Shown one piece after another: positions 3,504 to 56,990 of a stretch of DNA of 64,000 nt. The notes beneath the pieces were generated by a model. That model ran no database searches. It saw nothing but the letters and a program-made list of their open reading frames with translations, and was not told the DNA's origin. Within the stretch, counting starts at the first letter, position 1, and each line of letters begins with the position of its first letter. The stretch is taken from assembly GCA_937899265.1 (NCBI GenBank), contig CALBPV010000005.1, positions 1,041-65,040 on the forward strand. Reading direction: 5' to 3'. Made by a program: the position numbers and the translations under genes. The stretch comes from an uncultured Bacteroidales bacterium (GTDB lineage: Bacteria; Bacteroidota; Bacteroidia; Bacteroidales; UBA3663).

Positions 3504-3537
3504 CGCTCTCTTTTCTACACATTATATATATATATTA

Positions 3538-3670
3538 TGTCCCCGTTTTCCACCCCGTTAATATATATGTCCCCGTTTTCCACCCCAGCCCCTACTCCCC
3601 TCTCCCCTCTCCCCTCCCTTCAGGGAGGGGCTGGGGGTAGGCTGTCCGTTTTCCTCCCCGTTAATATATA
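3538..3670 (+). repeat. Three copies of a ~30-bp unit, TGTCCCCGTTTTCCACCCCGTTAATATATA, interrupted by a GC-rich element.
   Basis: Copy 1 is full length (3538-3567). Copy 2 is the first 19 nt and is identical (3568-3586). Copy 3 is full length but diverged, with a 2-nt deletion and one substitution (3643-3670). The GC-rich palindrome lies between copies 2 and 3. Confidence 0.85.
3586..3644. repeat. C-rich/G-rich imperfect palindromic element (family member 1) with G-quadruplex/i-motif potential.
   Basis: The core stem CCCCTCCC-TTCA-GGGAGGGG (3611-3630) is 8 bp and perfect, extended imperfectly. The left arm is CCCC-tact-CCCC-tct-CCCC-tct-CCCC-t-CCC. The ends CAGCCCCTAC...GTAGGCTG are roughly inverted. 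It resembles the elements at 18136-18196 and 30128-30176. Confidence 0.8.
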
Positions 3671-3708: not shown

Positions 3709-6090
3709 ATGTACAACAAATCACTACTGCCCAAATGCGGGAAGTTTCTGGTCGCTCTGTCCGCTGTCGTGCTCACAATGACGGCTTGTCAGGACGACTT
3801 GGGAGATGACAGCCATTACAAAGCTCCCTCCTTCCTGGCCGGAAACGCCCTGCAGGTGCTTGAGAAGTCGTATGAAGGTCATACTTTCAACACCTTCCTA
3901 CGCGGCATCGAACTCGTAGGTTACAACGATGTGGTTGACAGTCAGATTCTCACGGTGCTGGCTCCGACCGACGAGGCTTTTGCCGCTTTCCTGAGGGAAA
4001 AAGGCTATGCCGGCATCGAAGATCTCTACTATGCCAATCCAACCTATGCAACACAACTGATTACCTATCACCTCCTCTACTATGCGATGGATTGGGACAA
4101 GATGACCAATTTCCGTCCTTCCGAGGGCGATGCCGCCACCGAGAGCCAACGGGCCCGGATGGCAGGCATGTACAACAGGTACAGAACACGTTGTGCGGTG
4201 GAGGAAACCGTCGAATTCAACAGCGAAGCTTCCGTCAACGCCAACGTGCGAGTGGTTCACTACGACCGCTACCTGACAGTCTTCTCTGAGAAACTCTTTG
4301 CCACCTTGGGAATCGATGCTGCTTCCAACTACAATTATTTCTTCCCCAACACGGAGTGGAATCCCAAACATCTGGACAACGGCTTCAATGTCATGAACGC
4401 AGCCGTGCTCGACACTGCCGCTGTGGTCACCGACAACGGATATCTCTACCACATCGACCACGTCATTGAGCCCGTGGGAACCATCTACGACGAGATTTCT
4501 TCCAACCAGGACTACTCGCTCGTCAAGAACCTCTTCGACCAATACGGCTATTACCTCATAGACAATGACGAATCGGACAACCGAGGATACACCGTCTATT
4601 CCCATCGTTTCAGTTCTCTGCCCGACATCGCCTCCGAATGGGCCGTTTCGGACTATCTGGCTTTTGCAACCAACAGTTTCGCTTCCTACAACCTCTTCAT
4701 TCCCACCGACCGGGCTCTCAACAAGATGTTCTCGGAATATTGGGAAGAAGGTTGCGGCTACTCTTCGGTGGCCGACCTCAACCCCGCCATCCAGGGAATC
4801 CTCCTCCAGGAGTGCGTGGGTTACATTGACGTGGACGGCGTACGCACGACACAGTATATGTGCTATCCCGACTATATACGTGAGGGCAAGGTGCAGTCGA
4901 GCTTCGGCACGACCATCGAGAACGATCCCTCTTCGTTCGACGAGAACCTCTTCTGCAATAACGGCGTCATTTACGGTTCGTCGCAGATGGAGGTGCCCGG
5001 AGTGTTCTCGTCGGTCGCCGGCCCCGCTTTCAAGGACGTGAAATACCTGCCTTATCTCTATGCTCTCTACGGTGCCGACCTCCTCCTTTCTCTGTCTTCC
5101 AAGGAGTCGGACTATATCGCCCTCATTCCCGACACCGCCCAGTTCGCCCACAACGACCCCGCCATGCGCCTCTTCCGAAGCACTGCCTCCGGAACGACAA
5201 CCTACACCCTCCAACAGTGGAACGACGAGGTTTCCGACTACGTCAACATGGGTACTTCCACCATGCGCGACATCGCCAATATGCACACCTCCACCGATGC
5301 CACCGAGCTCAAGACCGAGGGAACGCAGGTTATCGAGACCAACGTGTCGTTCAACTACTGGTTTGTCGATAACGGCATGATTACGACCAATGCACTCTTC
5401 AACCAGCAGCTCAACCCCACTTTCAACGAGGAAATCTGGTATCCATTCACCGAAATCAAACGAACCGCTGCGGGCCAAAACTGGAGCAACGGCAAGGCTT
5501 ACGCCTACGCCTACCCCGGTGTCTATCAGTCGGCTTCGGGAAGCAGTCTGGAAGCCGAGCTCTCTCAGAACAACGACCGCAACTATCCATACTACTGTTT
5601 CGTGCAACTGCTCCAAAAAGCCGGATTGGCTGCGGGCGGAAAATTCTCGGGTATGCTCACCCTTGACCCCGAGTCTCCCCGTTTCTTCGCCATCGTGCCC
5701 ACCAACGATGCCGTCAAGGATGCCCTCAAGAGTCTGCCCGGTTGCAGTGCACTCAATATCAATGCATCGACATACGCCATCACAGGTACCGTCTCGACAG
5801 CCAACAAAACCGTGCTCGCCAACTACCTGCTCAGCTATTTCGTCACTGCCGACCGCAACGCCTTCACCTCCTATCCCTACCTCGGTTCCACCTGCAAAGG
5901 ACGATTCGAGACCTCCGGCAACTATGCGCTCAACATCGCCGACACCGGCGACGCCATCACCGTCAACTTCGCCCCTCAAGGCTCCGCAACTCCCGAGGGT
6001 AATGTCGTCACCCTCGTCGATACCTACCATTTCCTGCCCTTCGCTTTCTCCGACGGTGCTTTCCAAATGATTGATACAGTATTACAGTAG
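3709..6090 (+). CDS. Fasciclin (FAS1) repeat surface lipoprotein.
   Basis: The signal peptide with lipobox is 'VVLTMTAC'. Four FAS1-like H1/H2 motifs are present: 'ILTVLAPTDEAFAAFL', 'NLFIPTDRALNKMF', 'YIALIPDTAQFA' and 'FFAIVPTNDAVKDAL'. It sits immediately upstream of SusC. Confidence 0.8.
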   Translation: MYNKSLLPKCGKFLVALSAVVLTMTACQDDLGDDSHYKAPSFLAGNALQVLEKSYEGHTFNTFLRGIELVGYNDVVDSQILTVLAPTDEAFAAFLREKGYAGIEDLYYANPTYATQLITYHLLYYAMDWDKMTNFRPSEGDAATESQRARMAGMYNRYRTRCAVEETVEFNSEASVNANVRVVHYDRYLTVFSEKLFATLGIDAASNYNYFFPNTEWNPKHLDNGFNVMNAAVLDTAAVVTDNGYLYHIDHVIEPVGTIYDEISSNQDYSLVKNLFDQYGYYLIDNDESDNRGYTVYSHRFSSLPDIASEWAVSDYLAFATNSFASYNLFIPTDRALNKMFSEYWEEGCGYSSVADLNPAIQGILLQECVGYIDVDGVRTTQYMCYPDYIREGKVQSSFGTTIENDPSSFDENLFCNNGVIYGSSQMEVPGVFSSVAGPAFKDVKYLPYLYALYGADLLLSLSSKESDYIALIPDTAQFAHNDPAMRLFRSTASGTTTYTLQQWNDEVSDYVNMGTSTMRDIANMHTSTDATELKTEGTQVIETNVSFNYWFVDNGMITTNALFNQQLNPTFNEEIWYPFTEIKRTAAGQNWSNGKAYAYAYPGVYQSASGSSLEAELSQNNDRNYPYYCFVQLLQKAGLAAGGKFSGMLTLDPESPRFFAIVPTNDAVKDALKSLPGCSALNINASTYAITGTVSTANKTVLANYLLSYFVTADRNAFTSYPYLGSTCKGRFETSGNYALNIADTGDAITVNFAPQGSATPEGNVVTLVDTYHFLPFAFSDGAFQMIDTVLQ

Positions 6091-6099
6091 TCTCAAAAC

Positions 6100-6155
6100 G
6101 AAACTTGAAACTTGAAACTTGAAACTTGAAACTTGAAACTTGAAACTTGAAACTT
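6100..6155 (+). repeat. Tandem heptamer array, 8 perfect copies of GAAACTT.
   Basis: Direct reading gives units starting at 6100, 6107, 6114, 6121, 6128, 6135, 6142 and 6149. The array lies between the fasciclin stop (6088-6090) and the ATG at 6159. Confidence 0.97.
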
Positions 6156-6158
6156 TTT

Positions 6159-9100
6159 ATGATGAATCGATTAGCGGACAAGGCCGTAAGCCTTAGACCT
6201 TTGACTTTTGTCTTTAGACTGAGAAAATTAGCGGACAAGGCCGTAAGCCTTAGACCTTTGACTTTTGTCTTTATTTTCTTCATGCTGTTCTGTTTCGGGG
6301 CTGCCGTGGCACTGGCACAGAACAAGACCATGACAGGTACCGTCATCGAGGAGGGTGTCAACGAGCCCATCTACGGCGCCAACGTCGTCGTCATTAATCA
6401 GCAGAACCGAACCCTCGGCGGTACAATTACCGACCTCGACGGCAATTTCGTGCTCAACGTGCCCGAGGGCAAGAATCTGAGAATCCAGATTTCTTTCATC
6501 GGTCTCAAGACGCAGACTTTCAACTACACCGGGCAGAGCAAACTCAACGTCACCCTTGCCAGCGACTCCAAGTTGCTGGGCGATGTCGAGGTCGTCACCA
6601 AAGCCGTCACCCGTTCCGAACTCGGTATCACCGACATCCAACAGACCTCTTCCACCCAGCGTGTCCAGATGGCAGAGCTCACCGAGGTCGCTCCCGTGGC
6701 CTCCATCGAAGAGGCGCTCCAGGGTCAGATGGCCGGCGTGGACATCGTGTTGGGCGGTGACCCCGGCGCCAAGTCCTCCATCCGCATCCGAGGCGTCAGC
6801 ACCCTCTCCTCTTCCGCCGAACCTCTCGTCGTCGTCGATGGTATTCCCACCACCGTTTCTTTCGGCGACGACTTCTCGTTCTCCGATGCCAACGAGGATG
6901 ACTTCGGTGCCCTCCTCAACATCTCGCCCGCCGACATCGAAAGCATCGAGGTGCTCAAGGATGCCGCCGCAACCTCTATCTACGGCACCGCCGGTTCCAA
7001 CGGTGTGCTCCTCATCAACACCAAGCAGGGCAAGACCGGCAAGACTCGCTTCAACTTCCAGTCCAAGTTCTCCTACAAGGAAGAGCCCGCAACCATCCCC
7101 CTGCTCAACGGCAAACAGTACATCTCCATGATTGAGGATGCCATCTGGAATGCCGCCAATGCCAAGGGGCTCGCCTCCGCCGCCTCCGAACTCAACCTCC
7201 TCTTCAATACCAAGGAGTTGCTTCGCGACCCCTCCTACCGCTACTACAACGAATATAATGTCGATACCGACTGGCTCGACCAAGTGCGCCAGAACGCTTG
7301 GCAGTGGGACAACTCCTTCAGCATGACCGGCGGCGGCGAAAAAGCCACCTACCGCCTGTCGTTCGGATATCTCGACGATATCGGCACAACCATCGGTACC
7401 GAGGCCCGCCGTATCACTGCCGGTGCCAAGATTACCTATAAGTTCTCCGACCGTTTCCGCATCTACACCGACCTCTCCTACACCGACTACGACAAAGATG
7501 CCAACGCCGTCGAGAACGTGCGTTCCCGCGCTCAGGCCATGATGCCAAACCAGAGCCCCTACCTCATGAACGACGACGGAACCCCCAGTGCGTCCTATTT
7601 CACGCCCGAGGAAAACTTCCAGGGCTCGTTCTCCGGTGTGAGCAGCAGCAATAACGGACTGGGCAACTTCAACCCCGTGGCCATGGCTAAGGAGTCATAC
7701 AAGAACACACGCGAGCGCACCGAGAAGATTACCATCGACTGGGAGTACAAGTTCCCGCTCAAGCAAGAGTGGCAGCACCTCACCTACGAGGGATACGTCA
7801 ACATGAACATGAAGACCTCCGCCACCAAGACCTTCCTGCCCCAAGTGGCCACCGGCGTGCTGTGGACCAACACCTACGCCAACCGCTCCACCGAGGCCGC
7901 CAGCGATGCCTTCTCCCTCCAGTTCTACAACAAGATACTTTATGTGGCAACCATTGCCGAGAAACACAACATCGTCTTCACCGGCATCGCCAATACCACC
8001 ACAACCCATTCCGCCTCTGCCTCCAACAGCACCTACGCCAACGTCTCCATCAACCTCAGCGACCCCATCGTCGGATCCACCGTCGGCGGCGCCTCATCCG
8101 GCGACAGCGAGAACCGTAAGGTGCGTTTCACCGAGAGCCTCAACTACGCCTACGACAACCGATATGTCCTCTCCGCCGTCGTGACCGAGGAAGGAAACTC
8201 CGCAATGGGCAAGAACCAGCGATTCGGCGTCTTCCCCGCTTTCGGCGCCTCGTGGAACCTCGAGAAGGAGCATTTCATGGAAAATCATGAGTGGCTCACC
8301 CAGGGCAAGCTCCGCGCCTCGCTCGGTTGGTCCGGCAACGCGCCCTCATCAGGCTACAGCTACCTCGGCGCTTACTCCTCGTTGGGCACCTACGGCTCGA
8401 TGAGCGCCATCTCGCCCAGCCGGATGCAGCTCGACAAACTCAAATGGGAAAGCAGTCGCGAATGGGATCTCGGTCTCGACCTCCGCATCCTCGACCGCTA
8501 CGGCCTCACCATCGACTACTACGACAAATACACCGAAGACTGTCTGATGTCAAGTGTCGCCATCCCCTCCACCTCCGGCTACACCTCCCTCAAGTACATG
8601 AACTCGGGAGAAATGTCCAACAAGGGTTACGAAATACGTCTCGACGTGGATATCTTCAAGAGCAAGATGTGGTCCGCAAAAATCAGCGTCAACGCTGCCC
8701 GCAACATCAACAAGGTGGAACAGATTCCCACCAACTGGACGGCCGAGAACTACTCGTTCGGCAACGGCAACTACGCCGTGCGCATCGTGGAAGGCGACCC
8801 CATCGGCTCCTTCTACGGGTACAGGTATCTCGGTGTATATCGTGACAGCGAGGACACCTACGCACGGGATGCCAGCGGCAACGTGATGCGTGACTTCAAC
8901 GGCGATGTTGTCACCATGAAGAACGGTACCACTCAGGTCTATGCCGGTGATGCCAAGTACGAGGACATCAACCACGACGGTGTAATCAACGAACAGGACA
9001 TTGTCTATCTCGGCAACTCCAACCCGACCCTCACCGGCGGCGGTAACTTCAACCTCAAATACGGCAACACGAAGACCTCGTTCGGACAGTTCTCGCTCAC

Positions 9101-14918: not shown

Positions 14919-17900
14919 ATGAATGTCTTAAAATCTATCCTTTGCAGCGCTGCACTCTGCTCGAGCTTGGCTTTGGCCCAGACATCGGAAACATATACGG
15001 TGAGCGGCGTGATTCTCAACGATCAGTTGCAACCGGTGGCTGACGCTATCGTCTCATGCCCCGGTCACGGACTGGTGCGCACCGAGGCTGACGGCAAGTT
15101 CGAGCTGAAGGATGTCGGAAAATGGAGCGCTGTGCGTGTCCAGGCTCAGGGATTCTACAACAAAGAGTTCCATGTGGTGGAGAACGCCGACAACCTCAAC
15201 GTTTATCTCATCGGAAAGGATAAGCGTCAGTACAACCAGACTGTCCTTAACGGCATGGCCGAAAACAGCGAAGGCGTTGAAAGCTCATTCGGCACCCAGA
15301 ATATCGCCAAAAAGGACCTCAGCCTCGGTGCAGTAGGTCTGGACAAAGCCCTTCAAGGACAGTTCACAGGTCTGCAGATAACACAGAAGTCAGGCATGAC
15401 GGGTGAAGGTTCAAATCTCCAGTGGCGAGGCATCCGCAGTTTCGTCGCCGAGACCAATCCCCTCATCGTCATCAACGGCGTGCCCTATATGCCCGACCTC
15501 CAGGAGTCATCGCTCATTCAGGGCTACTCGCGCAGCATCTTCCAGTCCATCAATCCTCAGGATATCGCCAACGTGACACTCCTCTCCGGTGCTGAAGCTT
15601 CGGCATGGGGTTCTCTCGGTTCCAACGGCGTGCTCCTCATTGAGACGGACGGTGCCAAGAGCGATGACCTCAACACTCGCGTCAGCTTCACGGGCAGTTT
15701 CGGCCTCAATTGGCAGACCAACAAACTGCCCCTCATGAACGCGTCGGCCTACAAGTCCTACCTCTCCGACATCGCGATGGACTACTACAAGAACGACATG
15801 GGCGCCTTCTTCTCCGACTTCGGATTTATGTCGTCGGCTTCGGCCAACATGGCCCACCTCTATGCGTTCAACACCGACTGGCAGGATGAAATCTTTGACA
15901 ATTCCATGACCCACGACTATCTCTTCCGTGTGGAAGGTGGAGACGCTATTGCCAAGTACGACATCGCCCTCGGCTACACAGGCGACCAGGGAACGCTCAC
16001 CGACACCAAGTCAGACCGCTTCCACGCCCAGATCAACGCCAACGTCCTGATAAGCAAGAAATGGGAGATGAACGCCAACATCAATCTGGCCTACCTCACC
16101 GGCAGCTATCAGGAACAGGGCTACAGCCTCGAGACCAATCCTCTCCTTGCTGCCTACCGGCGTTCGCCGCTCCTCTCGCCCTATCAGTCGAGCACCATTC
16201 CTTCCGAGGACGGCACCTATGCCCTCATCAACAAGTACTCGAGCTACTACCTCGGTTCGGTACAGAACACTGACTTCATCGTTTCCAACCCCGTCTCTCT
16301 CGTCAATACGGTCGATGGTTCCGTGCGCCAATATGATATGAACTCACGCATACAGGCTGTCTATAAGCCCACCAACGACTGGACGCTGGCTGCTACCATA
16401 GGTCTCTACACCAACTTCGACAAGGAGAAACTCTTCGTGCCGGGCAAGGACAACAGCGACATCGTGCCGCGTTTCGACAACTACGGCAAGTCCGAAAACA
16501 CCGTCAAGGTCGGCGAGGCTACTGTCTTCAACCTCTACTACGGCGCAAATGCCCGCTACCAGCACACATGGAACCGCCGTCACAGCCTCGATGCGCGCGC
16601 CGGATTCCAGGTACTCCGCACCAAGACGGAATACGATATGGCTACGGGACGCAACACGGCCAACGACTACTATCAGACCATGGGCGACACTCAGTCTGTC
16701 GGCAAATACATCGACGGATACAACAACAAGTGGAACTGGCTCAACGGATATGTGCAGGCCCAATACACCTTCGGCAACCTTGTGCGTGCCGGTTTGGTGG
16801 CTTCTGTGGACGGTGCCAGCTCCGTGGGTTCCGATGCCACACGTGTTGCAGTCTATCCCGGTGCCAACGTCGGACTCATGCTCGCCAACTGGAAAGGCAT
16901 CCGTACCGCCGACTGGCTCGACCGCCTCGATGTCTTTGCCGACTACGACGTAACGGGCAACAGCCGCTACTCGTCCAAGTTCGGAAAGTATTACTACACG
17001 TCTCAGCCCTATCAGACCATCGCCGGTATCGTACGTGCCAACGTACCCAACACCGAACTGAAGACCGAGACGGACTATTCCTTCCAGGCCGGCATTGATA
17101 TGGCCTGGCTCCAGAACCGTTTCGGAATCCGCGCAGCATGGTTCAACACCCGCGCCAAGGATGTTCTCATGCTGGGACGAAACTCCTCGGCACTCGGTAC
17201 CTCGCCCTACTACTGCAACGACGGCGAGATTGTGAGCAAAGGACTCGAACTGCGTTTCAGCGTCGTACCTGTCCGTACTCGCGACTGGACATGGACGCTC
17301 AACGTCCAGACCACACACGTGAAGAACTCTGTCGAGAACCTCGGCTCTCTGTCTCAGTTCATCACCTCGCTCAGCGACGGCGGTGAGATTATTTCCAAAG
17401 TCGGCGAGAATCCATACGCTTTCTATGGCTACCGCACACGGGGTGTCTATAGCACCTCCGCGGATGCCGCTGCCACCGGTCTTGTCAACCGCAACGGTGT
17501 GGCCTACAAGGCAGGCGATGTGATTTATGTCGATCAGAACAACGACGGCATCATCAACGATGCCGACAAAGTGGTGCTCGGAAGCTCCACGCCCGATGTC
17601 TTCGGCTCCGTCTTCACGAGCCTGCAATACAAGGGTTGGACGCTCGACCTCAACTTCGTCTTCAGCGACGGTAACGAGGCCTACAATGCCACCCGCCGCA
17701 TCACCGAGTCATCGTCCGATTTTGCCAACCAGTCCAAGTCGGTTATGCGCCGCTGGCAGAACGAAGGCGATGTCACCGACATGCCGCGTGCCAACTACCG
17801 AGACATCATCGGCAACAACGAAATGAGTGACCGCTTTGTCGAGGACGCTTCCTACATCAAGCTTCGCGATGTAACCCTCTCTTACTCCTGGAACAAGAAA

Positions 17901-18083
17901 CTCTGGAATTTCATCCGCGGCGGCAGCATCTATCTCTCCGGCCAGAATCTCTTGTGTATCACCAAGTATCTCGGAACCGACCCCGAATTCGCCTACAGCA
18001 ACGCCTCCTCTATGATGGGCGTCGATTATGGCAAGGTCGCTCTCCCCAAGAGTGTGAAAATCGGTGTGAATTTGCAATTCTGA
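14919..18083 (+). CDS. SusC/RagA-family TonB-dependent outer-membrane transporter (pair 2).
   Basis: The signal peptide ends 'SLALAQ'. It has a carboxypeptidase-regulatory-like domain ('[20 protein letters not shown]') and a plug motif ('[27 protein letters not shown]'). The C-terminus is 'VNLQF' and SusD follows. Confidence 0.9.
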   Translation: [1054 protein letters not shown]

Positions 18084-18086
18084 TGC

Positions 18087-18135
18087 GAAACTTGAAACCT
18101 GAAACTTGAAACCTGAAACCTGAAACTTGAAACCC
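18087..18135 (+). repeat. Tandem heptamer array, 7 units of GAAACTT/GAAACCT.
   Basis: Units start at 18087, 18094, 18101, 18108, 18115, 18122 and 18129, with the pattern T,C,T,C,C,T,(CC). The array begins 4 nt after the SusC stop (18081-18083). Confidence 0.95.
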
Positions 18136-18196
18136 TTCCCCCTTCCCCCTCCCCCTTCCCTTCAGGGGAGGGCTGGGGAGAGGCCGGGGGTAGGCT
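18136..18196. repeat. C-rich/G-rich imperfect palindromic element (family member 2) with a canonical G4 motif.
   Basis: The stem is CCCTTCCC-TTCA-GGGGAGGG (18153-18172). The right arm, GGGG-a-GGG-ct-GGGG-agaggcc-GGGGG, meets the (G3+N1-7)4 rule, and the left arm is C-tract rich. It ends in GGTAGGCT like member 1. Confidence 0.8.
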
Positions 18197-18210
18197 GAAA
18201 CTTGAAACTC
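18197..18210 (+). repeat. Two further heptamer units (GAAACTT GAAACTC) on the far side of the GC element.
   Basis: Read directly. They end 3 nt before the ATG at 18214. Confidence 0.85.
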
Positions 18211-18213
18211 ATT

Positions 18214-19995
18214 ATGAATATGAAAAATATTTTCTATAGTGTGAAGACGTGGTGCATGCTTTTCCTCATGGGAGGCGTGGCCTGCGGTTTGACTTCCTGC
18301 AACGACTTCTTCGAACCCCAAACGGACGATGCCCTCTCGGGCGATGACTACATGTCGTCCATCACCGAGATGGCTACAGGTTATCTCGGCATTCTCACCA
18401 AGATGCAGGCTGTCGGCGACAAGGAGATTTATCTCACCGACACTCGCGGCGAAATGCTGGAGCCCACCGACCAGTCCATCGCCGAACTCATTGCCCTCTA
18501 TAATTACGAAGACGATCTCACCGGCAATTCATACGCCGACCCCTCGGGCTACTACGATGTGGTTATCGCCTGCAACGACTACCTCCAGAACATGCTCGAC
18601 TTCAAGAAGAACTATCCCGAGATAGTGGCCGAGACAGACTACTTCGAAGGTCTCTTCGCCTCTGCCATCCGTGTCAAGGTCTGGGCCTACATGACTCTCG
18701 CCGAGATTTACGGACAGGCCCTCTGGTTCGACGACCCCATCACCTCTATCAAGGATGTCCGCGATGCAACCATCTTCACTCGTCTCACCACTGCGCAGAT
18801 TGTCTCTCGGTGCCTCTCCTTGCTCACCGGCGGATGGCAGGGCTACTCGGCGGCTGAGGACTTCTCATGGATTGCCTGGATCGACCCGTCCAACGTCAAT
18901 TCCATCGCCTCGTCTTCCTACCGCTATTGGGATCAGATGACTCCGCCCTACGATGCCCTGCTCGTCAAACTAACCCTTTGGGATGCCGCTTTCCAAGATG
19001 CTGCAGGCAACACCTCCGGAGCTCAGACCGACTACGAAACCGTGGCCGACCAGATTCTCAAGATGCTCAACGACAAGTTCATCTCCAACATCACTTACTG
19101 GAAGCGCGGCGCTCGTACCTCGGGCGTATATAGCAATATGTGGAACTACGCCTCCCCCAACCAGGAGGAGTCCGTCAGCGCCATTATCTACGACTACACC
19201 AAGAACCAGACAAACCGGCTGCTCTATCATTTCTCCAACGAATACCCCAACGCCTATCTGCTCACTTCCAGCGAGGTGGGACGAGCACGTTTCTCCGATA
19301 CCACCATTGACCCTCTCGGAACCTCCACCGAGGACAGCCGTCTGGGACGCACCACACGGGAGAACAGCTCGGTGTGGTATATCTCGAAATTCCGTCCCGT
19401 GGGCTCCACCGTGCGCGTTGAGGCCTACCAGGATGACGTGCATGTCTATACCTTCCGCGCAGCCGAACTTTATCTCTGGCTCGCCGAGGCTCTCAACCAC
19501 CTCGGCAGATACGACGCCCTCAACCACATCATCAACGAGGGTTTCAACTCCACCTGGTCCGACCTCTTCACCCAAATCGAAGAGGGCGACGAGACAGTGT
19601 CCGAGGCCAATCTGTTCCAGTGGAAGGGCTTTACAAGCTATTGGATTAACTCCAAGACCGGCGGCACCTACAACGGGTTCCGCAACTGCATGGGTGTGGG
19701 CAACGTTGCCATTTGGGACGAAACAACCCATACTGCTGCCGAGGCGCAGCGCCACAACGACGAACTGCTGGCCAACGAATGGATGTTCGAGTGCGCCTGC
19801 GAGGGAAAGGTATATCCCAACCTCATTCGTTTCGCCGAGCGCTACAACGACGCCTCCATCGTCTCCGACCGTGTGACGCCCAAGTACGCCACCTCCAAAA
19901 CCGGTGCAACCGAAGCCTCCGTTGCCACCAAAATTCAGAGCGTCAACACCAATTCCGGTGTAATGGGCTATTACGTGCCCTGGAACTTGTATTAA
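18214..19995 (+). CDS. SusD/RagB-family nutrient-binding lipoprotein (pair 2).
   Basis: The lipobox is 'CGLTSC'. It follows SusC and has a SusD-like helical core ('AAELYLWLAEALNHLGRY'). The track start 18202 is a TTG inside the heptamer repeat, so the ATGs at 18214 or 18220 are more likely. Confidence 0.8.
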   Translation: MNMKNIFYSVKTWCMLFLMGGVACGLTSCNDFFEPQTDDALSGDDYMSSITEMATGYLGILTKMQAVGDKEIYLTDTRGEMLEPTDQSIAELIALYNYEDDLTGNSYADPSGYYDVVIACNDYLQNMLDFKKNYPEIVAETDYFEGLFASAIRVKVWAYMTLAEIYGQALWFDDPITSIKDVRDATIFTRLTTAQIVSRCLSLLTGGWQGYSAAEDFSWIAWIDPSNVNSIASSSYRYWDQMTPPYDALLVKLTLWDAAFQDAAGNTSGAQTDYETVADQILKMLNDKFISNITYWKRGARTSGVYSNMWNYASPNQEESVSAIIYDYTKNQTNRLLYHFSNEYPNAYLLTSSEVGRARFSDTTIDPLGTSTEDSRLGRTTRENSSVWYISKFRPVGSTVRVEAYQDDVHVYTFRAAELYLWLAEALNHLGRYDALNHIINEGFNSTWSDLFTQIEEGDETVSEANLFQWKGFTSYWINSKTGGTYNGFRNCMGVGNVAIWDETTHTAAEAQRHNDELLANEWMFECACEGKVYPNLIRFAERYNDASIVSDRVTPKYATSKTGATEASVATKIQSVNTNSGVMGYYVPWNLY

Positions 19996-29988: not shown

Positions 29989-30127
29989 CATTGCCTCAGA
30001 CATCTTCCATCGAATCCCTTGGCGAGGAGAAGCACAAATGCCTTGTGGGCGGATATTTTTGGGGAGGACATGCGGACAGGTTCCTGTCACAGATTGCCCG
30101 AGGCATCCTCACTGACAACTCGGGGAA

Positions 30128-30176
30128 AGCCTCTCCCCGGCCTCGCCTAAAGGAAAGGGAGCAAGGGGGAGAGGCT
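30128..30176. repeat. GC-rich inverted repeat (family member 3), a probable bidirectional terminator between convergent genes.
   Basis: AGCCTCTCCCC (30128-30138) and GGGGAGAGGCT (30166-30176) form a perfect 11-bp inverted repeat with a 27-nt spacer. It shares GGGGAGAGGC and GGCCGGGG strings with the element at 18136-18196. Confidence 0.7.
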
Positions 30177-39162: not shown

Positions 39163-39297
39163 AGAATACTGCCGCCCAGCCTCCCCGCAAAAGAAAGAAG
39201 AAGACCATCTCCCGATGCCCTTCTTCACTAATCTTAAATCTAATACCATGAAAAACACGGGACAAATATAATCTTTTTTTCACAAAAACAACAACAG

Positions 39298-52500: not shown

Positions 52501-53441
52501 AGAACCTCCGGGCAATGGCTGCCGGACAGGATTCGCTTTACATACGGACTTACGAAGACTACCTTGCCGGACATTCTCGGCAGGTGCACGAGGCATATTT
52601 CTGGGTACACGACAACTGGCCGCTCTCGAAGCTAATGCCCAAATTCATCTTCCTCCACGCTCTCTCCTATATACAGGAAGGTGACGTAAAGAGTTTCCAG
52701 GAAGCCCTCGAACAACTCACGGCCACTTATCCCGAGAGTGATGTTTCTCCGTTGGCCGGCATGATGGTCAAAGGCATCCACGAAGGACGCAACGTACAGA
52801 CCGGTTCCACCAACAGAGGCATGATGTGGGGCAGTTCACTCCATCGCGAGGGGGACAGCATTGCCGTAGATTCCTCCATGATGTTTGTCAACGACCTCAA
52901 GGCTCCCTTTGTCCTGCTTTTGGCCTATCCTACCGACTCGCTCAATCAGAACGACCTGCTCTTCGAAATTGCCAAATTCAACTTCGAGAGCTTCCTCGTG
53001 AAAGACTTCGACCTCGAAATCATAAATACGGGCGGCGGTCTCAGCGTGTTGGTCATCAGCCAGTTCGCCGACATCAACGAGCTCCTCGACTACCACAACA
53101 AGATGGATGTTTCCGAGACGCTCTGGTTGCCCGACAACATTACAATGATTGATATCTCGGTGCCCAACTTCCGTGCCCTCCTCGCCGGACGCACCTTCGA
53201 AGAATACTTCCAATGGGTAGAGAAGACATACGGTGGCGGAGAAGAAGGAGATTCCGAGAAATCAGACAACTCTGACAATTCCGAGAAATCAGACAATTCC
53301 GACAATTCCGACAATTCCGAGAAATCAGACAACTCCGACAACTCTGACAACTCCGACAATTCCGACAATTCCGACAACTCCGACAACTCCGAGAAATCAG
53401 ACAATTCTGACAACTCCGACAACTCCGACAACTCCTTTTAA
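49566..53441 (+). CDS. Single 1291-codon ORF. It joins an ABC-3 (ZnuB/MntB-type) metal-transporter permease (~aa 1-256) in frame to a PorW/SprE-like TPR lipoprotein (aa 257 to the end).
   Basis: The permease part carries 'VFIAGGITHASLGGLGLG' and multiple TM segments. No stop intervenes before 'MRGVLHLVRRRSSAAVIVIMVLSALTLSGC' (ATG 50334), a complete lipoprotein signal peptide. Then follow 'FTTKFNPYFNGEEAYKKG', many TPR-like helices and an SDN/SEK repeat tail. The PorW assignment comes from remembered family features and adjacency to porX. Confidence 0.7.
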   Translation: MLLEYLFFRHALLGALLVSLCCGIIGTYVVTRRRVFIAGGITHASLGGLGLGIFAGLNPTWVAVVFAIVAAWAVQWLSSRRNIREDSAIAVCWSFGMALGIIFIFLTPGYAPSLTEYLFGNILTITAGDLWTMGIFTAVLLAFQIICQRAILYVAFDASFARIQRFRSGLVDYTMTALTAVAIVLSIRMIGIVLLLSVLTLPQMMASLFCNEYRRLVILSSLLCFAGCVGGLLVSVALNVPAGACIVALMVVVYFVMRGVLHLVRRRSSAAVIVIMVLSALTLSGCKSNTALNRGMRAFTTKFNPYFNGEEAYKKGLITMESRQDDEYSERIFLHPVHKYVGQEPGSDANFQRAVEKCKICVQTKSMNTPPKSRPDNPSKEYREWLKHSEFNPFLHNAWFLSGKAQFMMGNFDAAEATFRYTARKFYWKELLLQECHIWLARCAVMKKDYYQAEAELEQVIPAKNYSSQNSLGQNAVYKNLPARVQNEFSLVKAEMLLLQPGNEAAVLDYLTKGRKAFLSKDQRVRTRFFMAQLHEELSHSAASSAEREVHRKQAYKLYRNITHSASNYKTQFNARIAATRVMPTDNLDKVEKKLRHLSWQARNKEYLDQICYALGNVELARKDTAKAVEWYERAVEKSTRNGLDKAVAALRLGELTFEQADYVRAQKGYSAAMGIIKDTYPGYDSIRHISQVLDALQTHAESVHLQDSLLTLAALPEDSLNEAIDRIIKELTRQEKEAEDAQKMQAYNDKQSSRVDPLAQVAPNIPQVGTQDKSWYFYNPSVITRGKQEFQRRWGARKPEDDWRRKDKTASLLAAAEEMQDTIVETADNISPEIPADTPSDISSGDIAPAETAEAAPVDSVFLEKAQDPHNREYYLAQLPFTPEQKDACHAIIEEGLYNEGVIINEQLENFPLAIKTFTEVENRYPESARRLDMWYAIYLMYMRMNQPEKAEIYRQKLMEGFPEAAYTKAVADPNYIQNLRAMAAGQDSLYIRTYEDYLAGHSRQVHEAYFWVHDNWPLSKLMPKFIFLHALSYIQEGDVKSFQEALEQLTATYPESDVSPLAGMMVKGIHEGRNVQTGSTNRGMMWGSSLHREGDSIAVDSSMMFVNDLKAPFVLLLAYPTDSLNQNDLLFEIAKFNFESFLVKDFDLEIINTGGGLSVLVISQFADINELLDYHNKMDVSETLWLPDNITMIDISVPNFRALLAGRTFEEYFQWVEKTYGGGEEGDSEKSDNSDNSEKSDNSDNSDNSEKSDNSDNSDNSDNSDNSDNSDNSEKSDNSDNSDNSDNSF
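53250..53435 (+). repeat. Coding 9-nt tandem repeat, ~20 units (TCC GAC AAY = SDN, with interspersed TCC GAG AAA = SEK).
   Basis: It reads directly as D-(SEK)(SDN)2(SEK)(SDN)3(SEK)(SDN)7(SEK)(SDN)4-SF-stop at the C-terminus of the PorW-like ORF. Confidence 0.95.
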
Positions 53442-55039: not shown

Positions 55040-55876
55040 ATGGACATCTTTCCTCACCGCAGATTTGCTGCAAAATTCGCCTCCCCCGTGGAGGACAAAG
55101 AACACATCCTCCAAATAGCCATCGACATGGCTATGGAGGCCGGTCGCATCCAACTTCGCAAATTCCGCTCCCGTCACCTCGAAATGGAGACCAAAAGTTC
55201 CATCCACGATGTTGTGACCGAAGTCGATAAAGAATGTGAAGCCTTTCTCATCGCCCAGATTCACGAAGCCTATCCTACCCACTCGGTATTGGGCGAAGAA
55301 ACGGGACTCCATCAGAAGGAGAGCGATTGGGAATGGGTGATTGACCCCCTCGACGGTACGAACAACTACAGCCAGGGGCTTCCCGTCTTCAGCGTCAGCA
55401 TCGGCGTGAAGTACAAAGGCGAGACTCTGGTGGGCGTAGTCTATGCACCCTATCTCGACGAGCTCTTCACAGCCTCCAAGGACGGCGGTGCCGCCATGAA
55501 CGGCCGCGCCATCCACGTGAGCCGCAAGACAAACTTCGGGGCTTGTGTGCTGGGCACCGGCTTCCCCTACGACAAAGGCTCAGTGACGAGTTACGACAAC
55601 AACCTCGACAACGTGTGTGCCCTTCTGCCCAAGCTCCGCGGCCTTCGCCGCATGGGTTCTGCGGCATACGACCTTTGCTGTGTGGCCGCAGGCATCCTCG
55701 ATGGCTATTGGGAGTTGGGACTTAAGCCCTGGGATTTATGCGCCGGAGCCCTCATCGTCGAGGAAGCCGGTGGCAAGATTGTTCCTTTCCGTCAAGACCG
55801 CCCCATCGCCATCGTCGCAGGCAACCAAGCCCTTGTCAACCGGATTCTCTCCTTGCTCGGCAAAGACAAAGCCTGA
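55040..55876 (+). CDS. Inositol monophosphatase (SuhB/IMPase) family protein.
   Basis: Motifs are 'VLGEETG', 'WVIDPLDGTNNY' and 'GSAAYDLC'. Confidence 0.85.
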   Translation: MDIFPHRRFAAKFASPVEDKEHILQIAIDMAMEAGRIQLRKFRSRHLEMETKSSIHDVVTEVDKECEAFLIAQIHEAYPTHSVLGEETGLHQKESDWEWVIDPLDGTNNYSQGLPVFSVSIGVKYKGETLVGVVYAPYLDELFTASKDGGAAMNGRAIHVSRKTNFGACVLGTGFPYDKGSVTSYDNNLDNVCALLPKLRGLRRMGSAAYDLCCVAAGILDGYWELGLKPWDLCAGALIVEEAGGKIVPFRQDRPIAIVAGNQALVNRILSLLGKDKA

Positions 55877-55923
55877 AACTTGAAACTTGAAACTTGAAAC
55901 TTGAAACTTGAAACTTGAAACTT
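55875..55923 (+). repeat. Tandem heptamer array, 7 perfect copies of GAAACTT.
   Basis: Units start at 55875, 55882, 55889, 55896, 55903, 55910 and 55917. The IMPase stop TGA (55874-55876) overlaps the first unit. The array ends 11 nt before the trpS ATG. Confidence 0.97.
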
Positions 55924-55934
55924 AATTGACTCCT

Positions 55935-56936
55935 ATGGATAACGAAAAGAAAATCGTCCTCTCGGGCATCCGCTCCACGGGACACCTCCATCTGGGCAAC
56001 TACTACGGTGCCCTCCGCAATTTCGTCGAGATGCAGAACGACTATAAGTGTTTCTTCTTCATCGCCGACTACCACTCGCTCACCACACAGCCCGATCCCT
56101 CGCTCCTCAATCCTTCGGTACGTTCGATTCTGGCTGAATATCTCGCTGCCGGCCTCGATCCCGAGAAGGCCAACATCTACATCCAGAGCGATGTGCCCGA
56201 GACCTGTGAGTTCTACACTTTGCTGAATATGCACGCCTATGTGGGCGAACTTGAGAAAACCGTTTCTTTCAAGGACAAAGTGCGCAAGAACCCCAACAAT
56301 GTCAACGCCGGCCTGCTCACCTATCCCGTCCTCATGGCTGCCGACATTCTCCAGCATCGCGCCGACTACGTTCCTGTGGGCAAGGACCAGATGCAGCACC
56401 TCGAGATGGCACGCAACTACGCCGTCCGCTTCAACCATTTCTACCACACCGACCTCCTCAAGGAGCCTCAGCCTTTCGCAACTTCGAGAGAACCCATCAA
56501 GGTGCCCGGTCTCGACGGCAGCGGCAAGATGGGCAAGAGTGAAGGCAACTGCATCTACATCAACGACGACGACAAGACCGTCATCAAGAAAGTCAAGAAG
56601 GCTGTCACCGACATGACACCCACCGAGCAGAACTCTCCCATGTCCGACCCCATCAAGAATCTCTTCTACTTCCTTCAGCTCGTTTCCACTCAGGAAATCT
56701 ACAATCAGTATCTTGCTGCCTGGAACGATTGTTCCATCCGCTACGGCGATCTCAAGATGCAGATTGCAACCGACATCCTCAAAGTGACAACGCCTATTCG
56801 CGAACGGTATAACGAGATTTACACCGACAGCGACTACCTCAACCGCGTAGCAGCCAAGGGAGCCGAAGCAGCCCGAGAGAGCTGTCGCAAGACACTCGCT
56901 GCCATGCGCGAAATCATGGGCTTCAAACACTTCTGA
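55935..56936 (+). CDS. trpS: Tryptophan--tRNA ligase.
   Basis: It has 'SGIRSTGHLHLGNYYGA' (a HIGH-type motif) and 'GKMGKSEGN' (a KMSKS-type motif). The ATG at 55935 is preferred over the TTG at 55926. Confidence 0.95.
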   Translation: MDNEKKIVLSGIRSTGHLHLGNYYGALRNFVEMQNDYKCFFFIADYHSLTTQPDPSLLNPSVRSILAEYLAAGLDPEKANIYIQSDVPETCEFYTLLNMHAYVGELEKTVSFKDKVRKNPNNVNAGLLTYPVLMAADILQHRADYVPVGKDQMQHLEMARNYAVRFNHFYHTDLLKEPQPFATSREPIKVPGLDGSGKMGKSEGNCIYINDDDKTVIKKVKKAVTDMTPTEQNSPMSDPIKNLFYFLQLVSTQEIYNQYLAAWNDCSIRYGDLKMQIATDILKVTTPIRERYNEIYTDSDYLNRVAAKGAEAARESCRKTLAAMREIMGFKHF

Positions 56937-56990
56937 AACTTGAAACCTGAAACCTGAAACTTGAAACCTGAAACTTGAAACTTTGAACTT
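56935..56990 (+). repeat. Tandem heptamer array, 7 units of GAAACTT/GAAACCT plus one degenerate unit (TGAACTT).
   Basis: Units start at 56935, 56942, 56949, 56956, 56963, 56970 and 56977, with the degenerate unit at 56984-56990. The trpS stop TGA (56934-56936) overlaps the first unit. The array abuts the ATG at 56991. Confidence 0.95.

Follow-up and report, generated by a model that had tools for sequence, protein, structure and literature searches.

A SusC-SusD junction of an uncultured Bacteroidales bacterium as a probable heptamer microsatellite with an inserted BoxC-like repeat

The spacer between a SusC-like and a SusD-like gene of an uncultured Bacteroidales bacterium probably consists of a heptanucleotide microsatellite into which a BoxC-like GC-rich repeat has been inserted, two repeat classes that are common in this lineage, and is probably not a dedicated quadruplex switch. 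None of its parts is specific to the locus. In the window, the whole 64-kb stretch of DNA analysed here, heptamer arrays occupy three other spacers and two other copies of the GC element are present. For the locus itself the outcome is deflationary, as two kinds of repetitive DNA that are already known account for its striking appearance.

Results

The SusC-like TonB-dependent receptor gene (14919..18083, + strand; ORF list and Pfam Plug domain) encodes a protein with the C-terminus ...GVNLQF* and its TGA stop (18081-18083) lies 3 nt before the left heptanucleotide array (18087..18135, + strand). Based on direct reading, tandem-repeat analysis and alignment, this array comprises six full GAAACYT units and GAAACC(C), reading GAAACTT GAAACCT GAAACTT GAAACCT GAAACCT GAAACTT GAAACC(C). 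The GC element (18133..18196, + strand), delimited by nhmmer with a family model, alignment with family and TMECO copies and RNA folding, is a C-rich and then G-rich imperfect palindrome between the two heptamer blocks. Its family-defined core (18150-18196, nhmmer E=1e-7) is made up of the subfamily-2 unit CCCCCTTCCCTTCAGGGGAGGGCTGGGGAGAGGC and, behind it, a second purine tail, GGGGGTAGGCT, while 18133-18149 represents an additional C-rich extension outside the core. The right heptamer remnant GAAACTT GAAACTC (18197..18210, + strand) is followed by ATT and the ATG at 18214, so stopping 3 nt short of the SusD-like lipoprotein gene (18214..19995, + strand; Pfam SusD_RagB and homologues). Tandem Repeats Finder returned a period-7 array of 6.9 copies as well as period-11 and period-13 repeats within the two arms.

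The layout and coordinates of the initial annotation were borne out by direct reading, and the pattern is far beyond chance. Block order and positions stand, with the qualifications that the seventh heptamer unit overlaps the C-rich arm and that only 18150-18196 forms the core of the GC family. The assignment of the neighboring genes is likewise upheld by Pfam (Plug upstream, SusD_RagB downstream). Gene calls in public assemblies place the SusD start 42 nt later than 18214. The lipoprotein-type signal peptide MNMKNIFYSVKTWCMLFLMGGVACGLTSC favours a start at 18214 or 18220.

An empty site was found in a sister species (contig L005; SusD 89% identical) whose uninterrupted 34-nt spacer holds approximately four degenerate heptamers without the GC element. 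The flanks in the window align to the two halves of this spacer, the right remnant corresponding to GAAACTTGAAACAA. Further, four same-species contigs (L001-L004) carry a shorter allele of the GC element (38-40 nt) and a left array of only 3.4 units. These alleles stem from short-read metagenome assemblies where repeat collapse below 130 nt is unlikely at k=127. The element is missing from relatives with SusD proteins that are 89%, 73% and 70% identical and spacers of 14-36 nt, and other relatives show heptamer-periodic spacers that also lack it. Together, the empty site with its roughly four heptamers and the shorter same-species alleles support the proposal that the GC element was inserted into a pre-existing heptamer array. 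At 7 units, the left array of the window allele is longer than in the other strains and in the empty site, so that some of its growth may be owed to the GC element and not precede it. Both hairpin arms of the window allele are also enlarged by similar amounts, ca. 12 and 11 nt, which independent slippage does not obviously explain.

The element belongs to a dispersed family of 35-36-nt repeats with the consensus CTCCCTTCCCTTYAGGGAGGGGNYGGGGGTAGGCT, and its reading as an inserted member of a miniature repeat family is supported. Using nhmmer, three copies were detected in the window. The second one, which is canonical (3589..3643, core 3608-3643, + strand; E=1.6e-12), is located in the spacer before the gene at 3709 and has an expanded C-rich arm (CCCCTCT x3.9). 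On both sides of it, a repeat search located direct repeats of TATGTCCCCGTTTTCCACCCC... (3536..3670, + strand; ca. 30 nt, 2.6 copies), so its flanks are locally duplicated as at the junction. The third, diverged copy (30127..30162, - strand; E=0.047) lies in the spacer between convergent mfd-like and TPR genes and is identical in four same-species contigs, one of which terminates inside it. A pattern scan of the metagenome collection yielded at least 133 copies, and a profile search of those loci at least 171. These numbers are lower bounds, and as all three scans of public collections were pattern-based, both copy numbers and apparent conservation at the pattern positions are biased. In case of viral sequences, a pattern scan of 2.9 million contigs gave only 4 matches, and carriage by phages was rejected as an explanation. 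A position-specific profile built from 102 copies showed a conserved 35-nt unit with conserved boundaries and one biased flanking position. In this unit a loop separates a pyrimidine block from a purine block, and a 2-nt linker connects the latter to a second purine block. The alternative suggestion that a heptamer had been duplicated as a target site was not sustained, as no target-site duplication of 2-6 nt was enriched at any tested boundary over the 102 family copies. For the same reason we rejected the identity of the GC element as a MITE. Nothing relevant on the sequence of the element or its encoded peptides was found in the literature.

With respect to known repeats, the closest match is provided by the BoxC/PIT/TMECO intrastrand-triplex repeats of E. 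coli (Bergler 1992 and Hoyne/Maher 2000, both as cited in PMC4666352). These share a length of 34-37 nt and the order of pyrimidine block, 3-4-nt loop, purine block, 2-3-nt linker and second purine block with the GC family, as well as a frequent stem mismatch, very high conservation among dispersed copies, occasional inverted or tandem pairs and hypervariable flanks. In alignment, the columns of the GC-family profile correspond one to one to those of published TMECO copies, and TMECO no.10, CCCTCGCCCTTTCAGGGAGAGGGCCGGGGTGAGGGT, closely resembles the family sequence CTCCCTTCCCTTCAGGGAGGGGCCGGGGGTAGGCT. The mirror symmetry between the second and third blocks is weaker than in TMECO. By hand alignment only, GGGGTAGG and reversed GGGAGGGG form 7/8 allowed triads after a 1-nt shift, the misfitting triad falling on the T.G position of the stem. 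Intrastrand triplex formation by single-stranded DNA in vitro is a feature of TMECO and putative for the GC family. The hosts differ, Bacteroidales here and enterobacteria for BoxC/PIT/TMECO, and about half of the sampled GC-family copies lie in ORF-like context whereas all BoxC copies in E. coli (23/23) are intergenic. Judged by this block organization, the GC element is a "BoxC-like" repeat, the putative Bacteroidales counterpart of the enterobacterial BoxC/PIT/TMECO repeats, which newly extends the BoxC/intrastrand-triplex kind of repeat to uncultured Bacteroidales.

Two further systems resemble the family in part. REP sequences are likewise short, GC-rich imperfect palindromes of high copy number, mostly found in co-directional or convergent spacers, while a few copies lie inside genes, especially those for replication and repair. 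GTAG-tagged REPs together with RAYT transposases form REPtrons (Di Nocera et al. 2013, PMC3733652). In the GC family, however, the conserved GTAG belongs to the tail, where NY and GGGG separate it by 6-7 nt from the 3' side of the stem, and is not placed against the stem. REPtrons and the GC family also share a nuclease-type gene bracketed by inverted repeat copies, but in our case this gene encodes a DUF559 protein with a Vsr-like PD-(D/E)xK fold and not a Y1 HUH transposase. No transposase domain was found by Pfam among the genes of the window, and a tblastn search of 1.9 Mb of loci with an approximate YafM query gave no credible RAYT, with spurious matches in loci L154 and L040. L154 contains a CotH-like ORF with an in-frame GC element, and the L040 match is a phosphoesterase-like ORF. 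The RPE of Rickettsia are selfish palindromes that have entered functional protein-coding genes without breaking the frame (Ogata et al. 2000, as cited in PMC3733652), a behavior shared by the GC family. Unlike RPE, which are 100-150 bp long and confined to Rickettsia, the GC element measures 36 nt, is read in four frames and both orientations and has free-living anaerobic Bacteroidales as its hosts.

Among the matches listed, 66 of 131 GC elements are located in frames that stay open for 150 nt or more on each side, compared with 71% of random windows, and their orientation within ORFs is balanced (33 vs 33). Intragenic copies constitute in-frame inserts of 12 codons (36 nt net), for example in TrxB, DnaE and LigA. 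In LigA, DnaE, Dus and a sodium:solute symporter of the SSF family, the insert lies within or next to a Pfam domain. TrxB orthologues are known with and without the 12-residue insert. The insert sites in TrxB are hypervariable, and GC elements and heptamer-encoded 7-residue repeats occur at the same two codon positions. The nearest named relatives of the TrxB-bearing contigs are Paludibacteraceae MAGs. Such inserts in essential proteins matter for gene calling, homology-based annotation and strain typing.

The two-unit heptamer pattern was matched 26 times in the 64-kb window compared with an expected 0.04. Arrays were located at 4 loci, all on the sense strand and with gaps of 3, 3, 11 and 0-7 nt to the following ATG. 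Apart from the junction, 8 perfect GAAACYT units (6100..6155, + strand) separate a fasciclin-domain gene (stop 6090) from a SusC-like gene (ATG 6159), and 7 units (55875..55923, + strand) begin within the stop codon (TGA) of an inositol monophosphatase gene and end 11 nt from the ATG of a tryptophanyl-tRNA synthetase gene. An array with T/C variants (56935..56990, + strand) extends from the TGA stop of the latter to the ATG of an aminotransferase gene, a spacer that is 3 nt long in the sister lineage. Based on Pfam, the arrays adjoin housekeeping genes as well as polysaccharide-utilisation genes. Copy number differs between strains in 7-nt steps, with 7 vs 3.4 units at the junction and 7 units in the window vs 6 in one same-species contig at the inositol monophosphatase/tryptophanyl-tRNA synthetase spacer. 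In sister lineages, the arrays are replaced or missing and the unit sequence is not kept at orthologous spacers. Related genomes use other units, namely GACCTTW and ACCAATC, and also carry intragenic period-7 arrays in multiples of 21 nt that encode 7-residue repeats. Among strict tandem repeats in related contigs, 50/56 had period 7. No preference in array orientation was seen across other phyla with ORF calls that are crude (stop-to-stop and noisy in GC-rich DNA). At gathering thresholds, the single Rfam match in the window was the FopS small RNA, away from the junction, and no complement of the heptamer was found in its sequence.

The GAAACYT arrays are comparable to the heptanucleotide repeats known as STRR in cyanobacteria. 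They also resemble TAACTGA-type and long simple sequence repeat (LSSR) arrays where one heptamer is found at many loci of one genome, in intergenic regions, in forward orientation, few nucleotides from start codons and with strain differences in 7-nt steps. For the former, translational regulation was proposed (MacGregor 2015, PMC4679880). Heptanucleotide LSSR were surveyed by Mrazek et al. 2007 (as cited in PMC4679880), and period 7 is the dominant class, as among the related contigs here. The differences to TAACTGA repeats lie in the unit, GAAACYT, and in the other units and intragenic arrays of relatives.

Discussion

We propose that GAAACYT is a slippage-prone microsatellite that is reused at several operon spacers in sense direction, from the upstream stop to near the next ATG. 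As the empty site shows, one solo copy of the GC element was inserted within an ancestral array of ca. 4 units, and both array and GC-element blocks would subsequently have changed in length by local tandem duplication. Hairpin and triplex repeats of this kind are documented to destabilise their flanks. Hypervariable flanks were described around BoxC-type elements (Holder et al. 2015, NAR, PMC4666352), and for the GC family flank variability is seen in the junction alleles, at the duplicated flanks of the second copy and at the TrxB sites. In mRNA, the GC element would act only as a strong hairpin, with the two remaining A-rich heptamers probably leaving the start region unstructured. Any effects on the susC/susD message, such as a barrier to 3' decay or weaker translational coupling, would be incidental and not a conserved design.

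The order of events could also be different, with the heptamer flanks being largely produced by the GC element through replication stalling and tandem duplication, or with one mechanism producing both. An association does exist, as 7 of 65 non-ORF GC elements lie within 25 nt of an array compared with 2.8% of random non-ORF windows (3.8x, p=0.002), although copies on one contig are non-independent in this test. The duplicated 30-mers around the second copy, the two codon positions shared in TrxB, the raised flank variability reported for BoxC-type elements (PMC4666352) and the greater number of heptamer units in the window allele than in alleles with the shorter element point in the same direction. 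However, the empty-site relative already possesses its ca. 4 heptamers, 3 of the 4 arrays in the window and ca. 90% of GC elements lack the respective partner, and in one locus (L264) about 12 period-7 arrays within 21 kb contrast with one GC-element match, and we thus regard this order as unlikely. The hot spots that GC repeats have in common with heptanucleotide microsatellites, whose units differ from genome to genome, offer a concrete handle on the dominance of period 7 in bacteria. An assembly artefact caused by repeats is hardly credible, both for the composite and for its polymorphism. Contigs do often end within GC elements (e.g. L263), as do many scan matches lie at contig ends, and the elements are abundant enough in uncultured Bacteroidales to break assemblies. 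Nevertheless, the composite was recovered with identical flanks in the window and four contigs, from three samples and three assemblers, and reading frames are kept around intragenic GC elements.

The initial annotation had further considered a module controlling the SusC:SusD ratio. In its most explicit form, the composite would be a selected cis-regulatory module where the hairpin shields the susC message or attenuates read-through and heptamer number sets the distance to susD. Consistent with this, a sense-strand RNA hairpin of -26 to -38 kcal/mol is predicted with its end 17 nt upstream of the susD ATG, the array runs up to the start codon like the TAACTGA repeats (PMC4679880), and heptamer copy number varies between strains. 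Folding z-scores of the junction are uninformative because any shuffle of a C-rich and a G-rich block folds well too. A permissive Rfam search at the junction gave only sub-threshold generic-hairpin matches, with no family reaching threshold, a terminator scan detected no intrinsic terminator at the GC element (the post-stem sequence GAAACTTGAAAC has no T-run) and no promoter was found there using a sigma-70 model, which is ill suited to Bacteroidota. The E. coli PIT elements, too, have neither promoter nor terminator activity according to Maher and colleagues (as cited in PMC4666352). The element is absent from the sister lineages and their short spacers, polymorphic in length within the species and repeated by the hundreds in unrelated surroundings, among them coding sequence and convergent spacers, in both orientations and without orientation bias in ORFs; GAAACYT arrays also separate housekeeping genes and their unit is not conserved at orthologous spacers. 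A dedicated SusC:SusD regulator is therefore unsupported, and we consider selection for such a module quite improbable. In E. coli, the REP between malE and malF forms an intercistronic hairpin that could shield the upstream mRNA from 3' to 5' decay. The junction shares a stable sense-strand hairpin in an intercistronic spacer with this REP as a functional analogy only, but its GC element is not conserved in place. A REP-like incidental effect of the RNA hairpin on the operon mRNA is possible, and the element may have an adaptive effect at this junction. A K+-dependent switch on susD translation, in which the G-rich arm would form a G-quadruplex, as RNA or DNA, that competes with the hairpin, appears extremely improbable. 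The arm (18165-18190) does read GGGG A GGG CT GGGG AGAGGCC GGGGG, runs and spacers which satisfy the (G3+N1-7)4 rule on the sense strand as had been noted. Yet with the quadruplex option allowed, the predicted minimum-free-energy fold remains the hairpin at -38 kcal/mol compared with -12.8 for the isolated G arm folded as a quadruplex. Further, four G-runs occur in only 2/130 family copies among the matches listed and in 0/4 same-species contigs, which have three. Alignment with the family derives the fourth run from the duplicated purine block of the tail, making the quadruplex potential an accident. Modeled folding energy and the absence of conservation among alleles and relatives disfavour a G-quadruplex regulatory element. 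The junction should consequently not be labeled by annotators as a SusC/SusD riboregulator or G4 switch.

Returning to a microsatellite that received a BoxC-like repeat, the best lead for the spread of the family is a DUF559 (Vsr-like) nuclease, as DUF559 genes were found bracketed by inverted copies of the GC element. We tentatively suggest, while holding it to be rather doubtful, that BoxC/TMECO-type repeats have DUF559 nucleases as their cognate enzymes for processing or mobilisation and jointly form REPtron-like selfish units with them, a reading that extends to in-frame copies in host genes, the solo copy at the junction and the hot spots shared with heptamers. Under these assumptions, the units could lie in frame within host genes in Bacteroidales of rumen, gut and bioreactor, where the 36-nt repeats would provide linkers free of stop codons, the GC element at the junction would be a solo, non-autonomous copy, and heptamer arrays would be either preferred targets or a by-product of GC-element instability. 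Such a partnership, if real, would assign a function to the large uncharacterised family that includes E. coli YcjD, and a mechanism of mobility to repeats that have been without one since 1992. With DUF559 nucleases as the suggested missing partner of BoxC-type repeats, E. coli K-12 represents a direct test system. In E. coli, ycjD (DUF559) lies 168 nt from the BoxC copy TMECO no.9.

Results and discussion

The spacer between the SusC-like gene (assigned by its Pfam Plug domain; stop TGA at 18081-18083) and the SusD_RagB gene (ATG at 18214) is composite, with the layout read from the sequence agreeing with the initial annotation. Seven GAAACYT units start at 18087, the seventh merging into the C-rich run of an imperfect palindrome, C-rich and then G-rich, that extends to 18196 and is followed by two further heptamers (18197-18210) ending 3 nt before the ATG. 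Besides the heptamer array, Tandem Repeats Finder reports period-11 and period-13 repeats within the two palindrome arms, and the G arm does fit the four-G-run rule. The two-unit heptamer pattern has 26 matches in the window against 0.04 expected. Neither the array nor the GC element is unique to the junction. The junction is made of two known kinds of repetitive DNA and the locus itself is ordinary. Positions 1-22767 form a large polysaccharide-utilisation-type cluster with two SusC/SusD pairs and fasciclin/DUF5108-, Fn3- and CHB_HEX_C-domain proteins, beyond which lies core chromosome (gyrA, obg, glyA, mfd, trpS).

Junction contigs of relatives were retrieved via SusD homologues. Four contigs of the same species (L001-L004, SusD 100%), representing three samples and three assemblers, carry 3.4 heptamers, a canonical 38-40-nt element and the same two right-hand heptamers, with flanks all identical to the window. 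In the sister species (L005, SusD 89%), the element is absent from a 34-nt spacer, TAATCAGCAACTTGGAACTTGAAACTTGAAACAAAATATG, whose halves align to the left and right flanks of the element in the window. Short heptamer-periodic spacers without the element are found at 73% SusD identity (L007-L009; GATAGTT GATAATT GAAAATT) and at 70% (L010; TTGACAA TTGAAAT). These junctions indicate that the heptamer-periodic spacer is ancestral and that the GC element was inserted into it, so that the proposed insertion into a pre-existing array is borne out by the empty site in L005 and the element-free spacers of L007-L010. The site is an insertion hot spot, since the L006 spacer (SusD 77%) holds an unrelated 157-nt insert (978-1133) containing GTCATCCTGAGAGAAACGAAGAATCTCA.

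The GC element is a dispersed miniature repeat, one of the two possibilities first raised. Apart from the junction copy (18133-18196), the window holds a second copy at 3608-3643 and, on the minus strand at 30127-30162, a third that has diverged, and a metagenome scan with the pattern CCCTTYAGGG-N(5-30)-GGGGGTAGGCT returned at least 133 copies in at least 120 loci. Many of the loci listed stem from the bioreactor metagenome project of the window's species; the others mostly bear no label of origin, although one contig name points to a koala sample. A profile search raised the number to at least 171 copies in the loci of the scan, and found none in 0.85 Mb of unrelated genomes or in sister-species contigs with the orthologous SusD gene. 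Among 2.9 million viral contigs, only 4 matched the element. The conserved unit, CTCCCTT CCCTTYAGGGAGGGG NY GGGGGTAGGCT, comprises 35 nt plus one biased flanking base. Its 8-bp stem pairs CCCTTCCC with GGGAGGGG, includes a T.G position and carries a TTYA loop; 3' of the stem lie a linker of 2 nt and a G-rich, conserved tail. Positions of the search pattern are conserved by construction, while the left block and the boundaries are free of that bias. Target-site duplication, raised earlier as an alternative origin of the flanking heptamers, was not detectable around the copies. The junction copy consists of a subfamily-2 unit (...AGGGGAGGGCTGGGGAGAGGC) and, after it, a second tail block (GGGGGTAGGCT); its C-rich side is extended correspondingly, and the duplicated purine block is the source of its four G-runs. 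The second copy is flanked on either side (3536-3670) by direct repeats of about 30 nt (TATGTCCCCGTTTTCCACCCCGTTAATATA, 2.6 copies), adjoined by an (AT)n run. Tandem clusters with 36-42-nt spacing occur in three metagenome loci (L144, 1-3693; L184, 772-877; L215), that of L144 being flanked by inverted-orientation heptamer arrays, (GGTCTAA)n and (GACCTTT)n. Four contigs carry the third window copy unchanged, and one contig (L263) ends inside it. Ends inside or beside GC elements are frequent among the metagenome loci listed, and the repeat therefore appears to break short-read assemblies.

Three further GAAACYT arrays are present in the window: eight perfect units at 6100-6155, between a fasciclin-domain gene and a SusC-like gene, and arrays at 55875-55923, between the inositol monophosphatase and tryptophanyl-tRNA synthetase (TrpRS) genes, and at 56935-56990, between the TrpRS gene and an aminotransferase gene. 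All four arrays lie on the sense strand, fill short spacers of co-directional genes, start at or directly past the upstream stop codon and end 0-11 nt ahead of the next ATG. Since unit and layout are the same at all four spacers, the arrays reflect a genome-wide habit and not a polysaccharide-utilisation feature. They are labile. One same-species contig has six units in the monophosphatase-TrpRS spacer compared with seven in the window. In a sister lineage (L253-L255), whose TrpRS shares 90% identity or more, unrelated 9-mer arrays of GATTACTCA and TTCTATAGY occupy spacers near the TrpRS gene where the window has a heptamer array or none. The GATTACTCA array counts 9 copies in one contig and 3 in another, and the TrpRS-aminotransferase spacer of this lineage is only 3 nt long. 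Because GAAACUU is G-poor and without self-complementarity, and the array presents TGA in all three frames every 21 nt, the array is an unstructured, stop-rich spacer. Such a spacer is compatible with the Shine-Dalgarno-independent translation initiation of Bacteroidota, though it need not have been selected for this.

In about 0.75 Mb of related Bacteroidales contigs, 50 of 56 strict tandem repeats with at least four copies have period 7, and the favoured heptamer differs by contig (GACCTTW, TTGAAAG, ACCAATC and others). (GAAACYT)4 occurs in many phyla, often several times per genome, among the matches listed for species-representative genomes; no orientation preference was seen there with crude gene calls. 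The arrays thus match long simple sequence repeats, of which heptanucleotides are the commonest class, attributed to slippage of the polymerase (Mrazek 2007, as cited in PMC4679880). They resemble in particular the TAACTGA repeats known from Beggiatoaceae, cyanobacteria and some Bacteroidetes, which lie in forward orientation directly upstream of start codons and vary in 7-nt steps between strains (PMC4679880). A Paludibacteraceae-like MAG contig (L264, 1-21068) has about a dozen period-7 arrays, mostly of ACCAATN type, located both in spacers directly next to start codons and within ftsK, trxB and a giant gene of 2658 residues. Further repeats in the window include a perfect 47-nt direct repeat with 57-nt spacing at 6170-6273, at the 5' end of a SusC-like ORF, which duplicates LADKAVSLRPLTFVF in the predicted signal region and holds heptamers of a degenerate GACCTTT type; translation of this ORF may in fact start further downstream. 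At 53253-53435, about 20 copies of a 9-nt repeat with a 36-nt super-period encode the C-terminal (SDN)n/SEK repeats of an ABC-3/TPR fusion protein with 1291 residues.

The closest known kind to the GC element is the E. coli BoxC repeat (PIT, TMECO), with which the Bacteroidales unit aligns block for block. BoxC has 23 copies in MG1655, is 34-37 nt long (mostly 36 nt), consists of three blocks (pyrimidine, loop, purine, linker, purine) and forms an intrastrand triplex in vitro; its flanks vary between strains far more than control spacers, and mobility genes were never found nearby (Holder et al. 2015, PMC4666352). Whereas E. coli BoxC is always intergenic and without strand bias (PMC4666352), GC elements also lie inside ORFs. 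Among the matches listed, 66 of 131 distinct copies (33 sense, 33 antisense) sit in a reading frame that stays open for 150 nt or more on each side, compared with 71% of random 36-nt windows, so that they are only mildly depleted from ORFs. The net insert of 36 nt is read in four frames, yielding SLPFREGxGVG and LPSLQGGxGGRL from one strand and AYPxPLPKGKG and PTPxPSLKGRE from the other. Such 12-residue in-frame inserts (L204, L156, L194, L237 and L178; proteins P0151-P0263) were found, based on Pfam, in NAD-dependent DNA ligase (LigA, between OB fold and zinc finger), DNA polymerase III alpha (DnaE, inside the PHP domain), dihydrouridine synthase (Dus) and a sodium:solute symporter and, based on matches to solved structures, in thioredoxin reductase (TrxB). 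Nested inserts occur in P0187 and P0188. TrxB orthologues (87-95% identity) are hypervariable at two sites. They come in insert-free form (309-310 residues), with the 12-residue insert at one of these sites or at both, or with 7-residue repeats (QSPITNN and similar) at the same positions; in the DNA, these repeats are (ACCAATC)n arrays read across all three frames. Rickettsia likewise has in-frame palindromic repeats (RPE), and intragenic REPs often lie in replication and repair genes (PMC3733652). Within limited literature coverage, we found no report of such inserts in Bacteroidales or by BoxC-type repeats, and in-frame BoxC-like inserts in essential genes are a family-level lead worth pursuing.

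The two repeat classes are associated beyond the junction. Seven of 65 non-ORF GC elements lie within 25 nt of a heptamer array, compared with 2.8% of random non-ORF windows (3.8-fold, p=0.002, with same-contig copies not being independent). The TrxB sites are hot spots common to both classes, and the duplicated flanks of the second window copy point in the same direction. Based on these observations, the composite is an instance of a recurrent association, and the shared hot spots merit further study. Slipped microsatellite DNA may be the preferred target of the element. Alternatively, its hairpin or triplex may provoke duplication nearby, which would be expected from the instability reported for TMECO, or both classes may merely survive at the same permissive sites.

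With respect to function, the folding energy of the RNA hairpin is -38 kcal/mol for the window allele and -26.5 kcal/mol for the short one. G-quadruplex-aware folding retains the hairpin as the minimum, with a quadruplex in the G arm by itself attaining no more than -12.8 kcal/mol. Of the 130 family copies among the matches listed, 2 have four G-runs, and the four same-species contigs all lack them. Both results argue against the quadruplex first proposed. Since purine-motif triplexes do not form in RNA (PMC4666352), the element in mRNA is no more than a strong hairpin, whose end lies 17 nt ahead of the start codon. By analogy with REPs, it may stabilise or decouple the susC-susD message. However, relatives lack the element, which also varies within the species and occurs in many kinds of context, and we therefore regard any influence on the SusC:SusD ratio as incidental. 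The original interpretation thus stands for an inserted miniature repeat and a pre-existing array but not for a quadruplex or dedicated SusC:SusD control. An intrinsic terminator was rejected, as no T-run follows the stem, and no Rfam family reached its threshold at the element. Elsewhere in the window (39191-39258, minus strand), the Bacteroidetes small-RNA family FopS matches at 56.2 bits (gathering threshold 56), without complementarity to the heptamer.

A conserved ORF of about 120 residues, identified as DUF559 (PF04480, E=1e-28 to 1e-33), lies between inverted GC element pairs in L180, L181, L193, L196 and L205. Four of these ORFs have an element on each side, the left one reversed and the right one forward, so that the tails face outward. 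This is the geometry of REPtrons (REP repeats bracketing a RAYT transposase gene), but with a Vsr-like nuclease fold in place of RAYT. The unit is stop-free throughout and in frame with its host gene on both sides. Hosts are a GAF-type gene (L180), whose L163 counterpart has a solo element at the same site, a DegT-type aminotransferase (L205) and a FemAB-like gene (L193 and L196, same site). The nearest database relatives of the protein are fused to unrelated host-protein fragments via element-encoded linkers; more distant ones are ordinary, free-standing proteins of about 122 residues. Other GC-rich hairpin-type repeats flank DUF559 genes in L148, L164 and L121, that of L121 being a hairpin with a G-rich tail. 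Most DUF559 loci were selected for element content; L121 was fetched for its heptamer array and is thus unbiased in this respect. The window has no DUF559 gene. DUF559 has been grouped with Vsr and a group I intron homing endonuclease (PMC3424549), and the surveyed papers that mention it apparently do not link it to such repeats. Judged from sequence, the nuclease is a candidate partner enzyme of GC elements, a lead rather than a proven link, and worth pursuing with E. coli included. There, the K-12 DUF559 gene ycjD (NC_000913, 1351407-1351760, minus strand) is followed downstream by TMECO no. 9 (1351204-1351239), at a distance of 168 nt and in matching relative orientation. By our own arithmetic, based on 23 copies in 4.6 Mb, the chance of such proximity is about 0.004. 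An 81-nt stretch at this site matches a median of 16 places per genome across 5,426 E. coli genomes.
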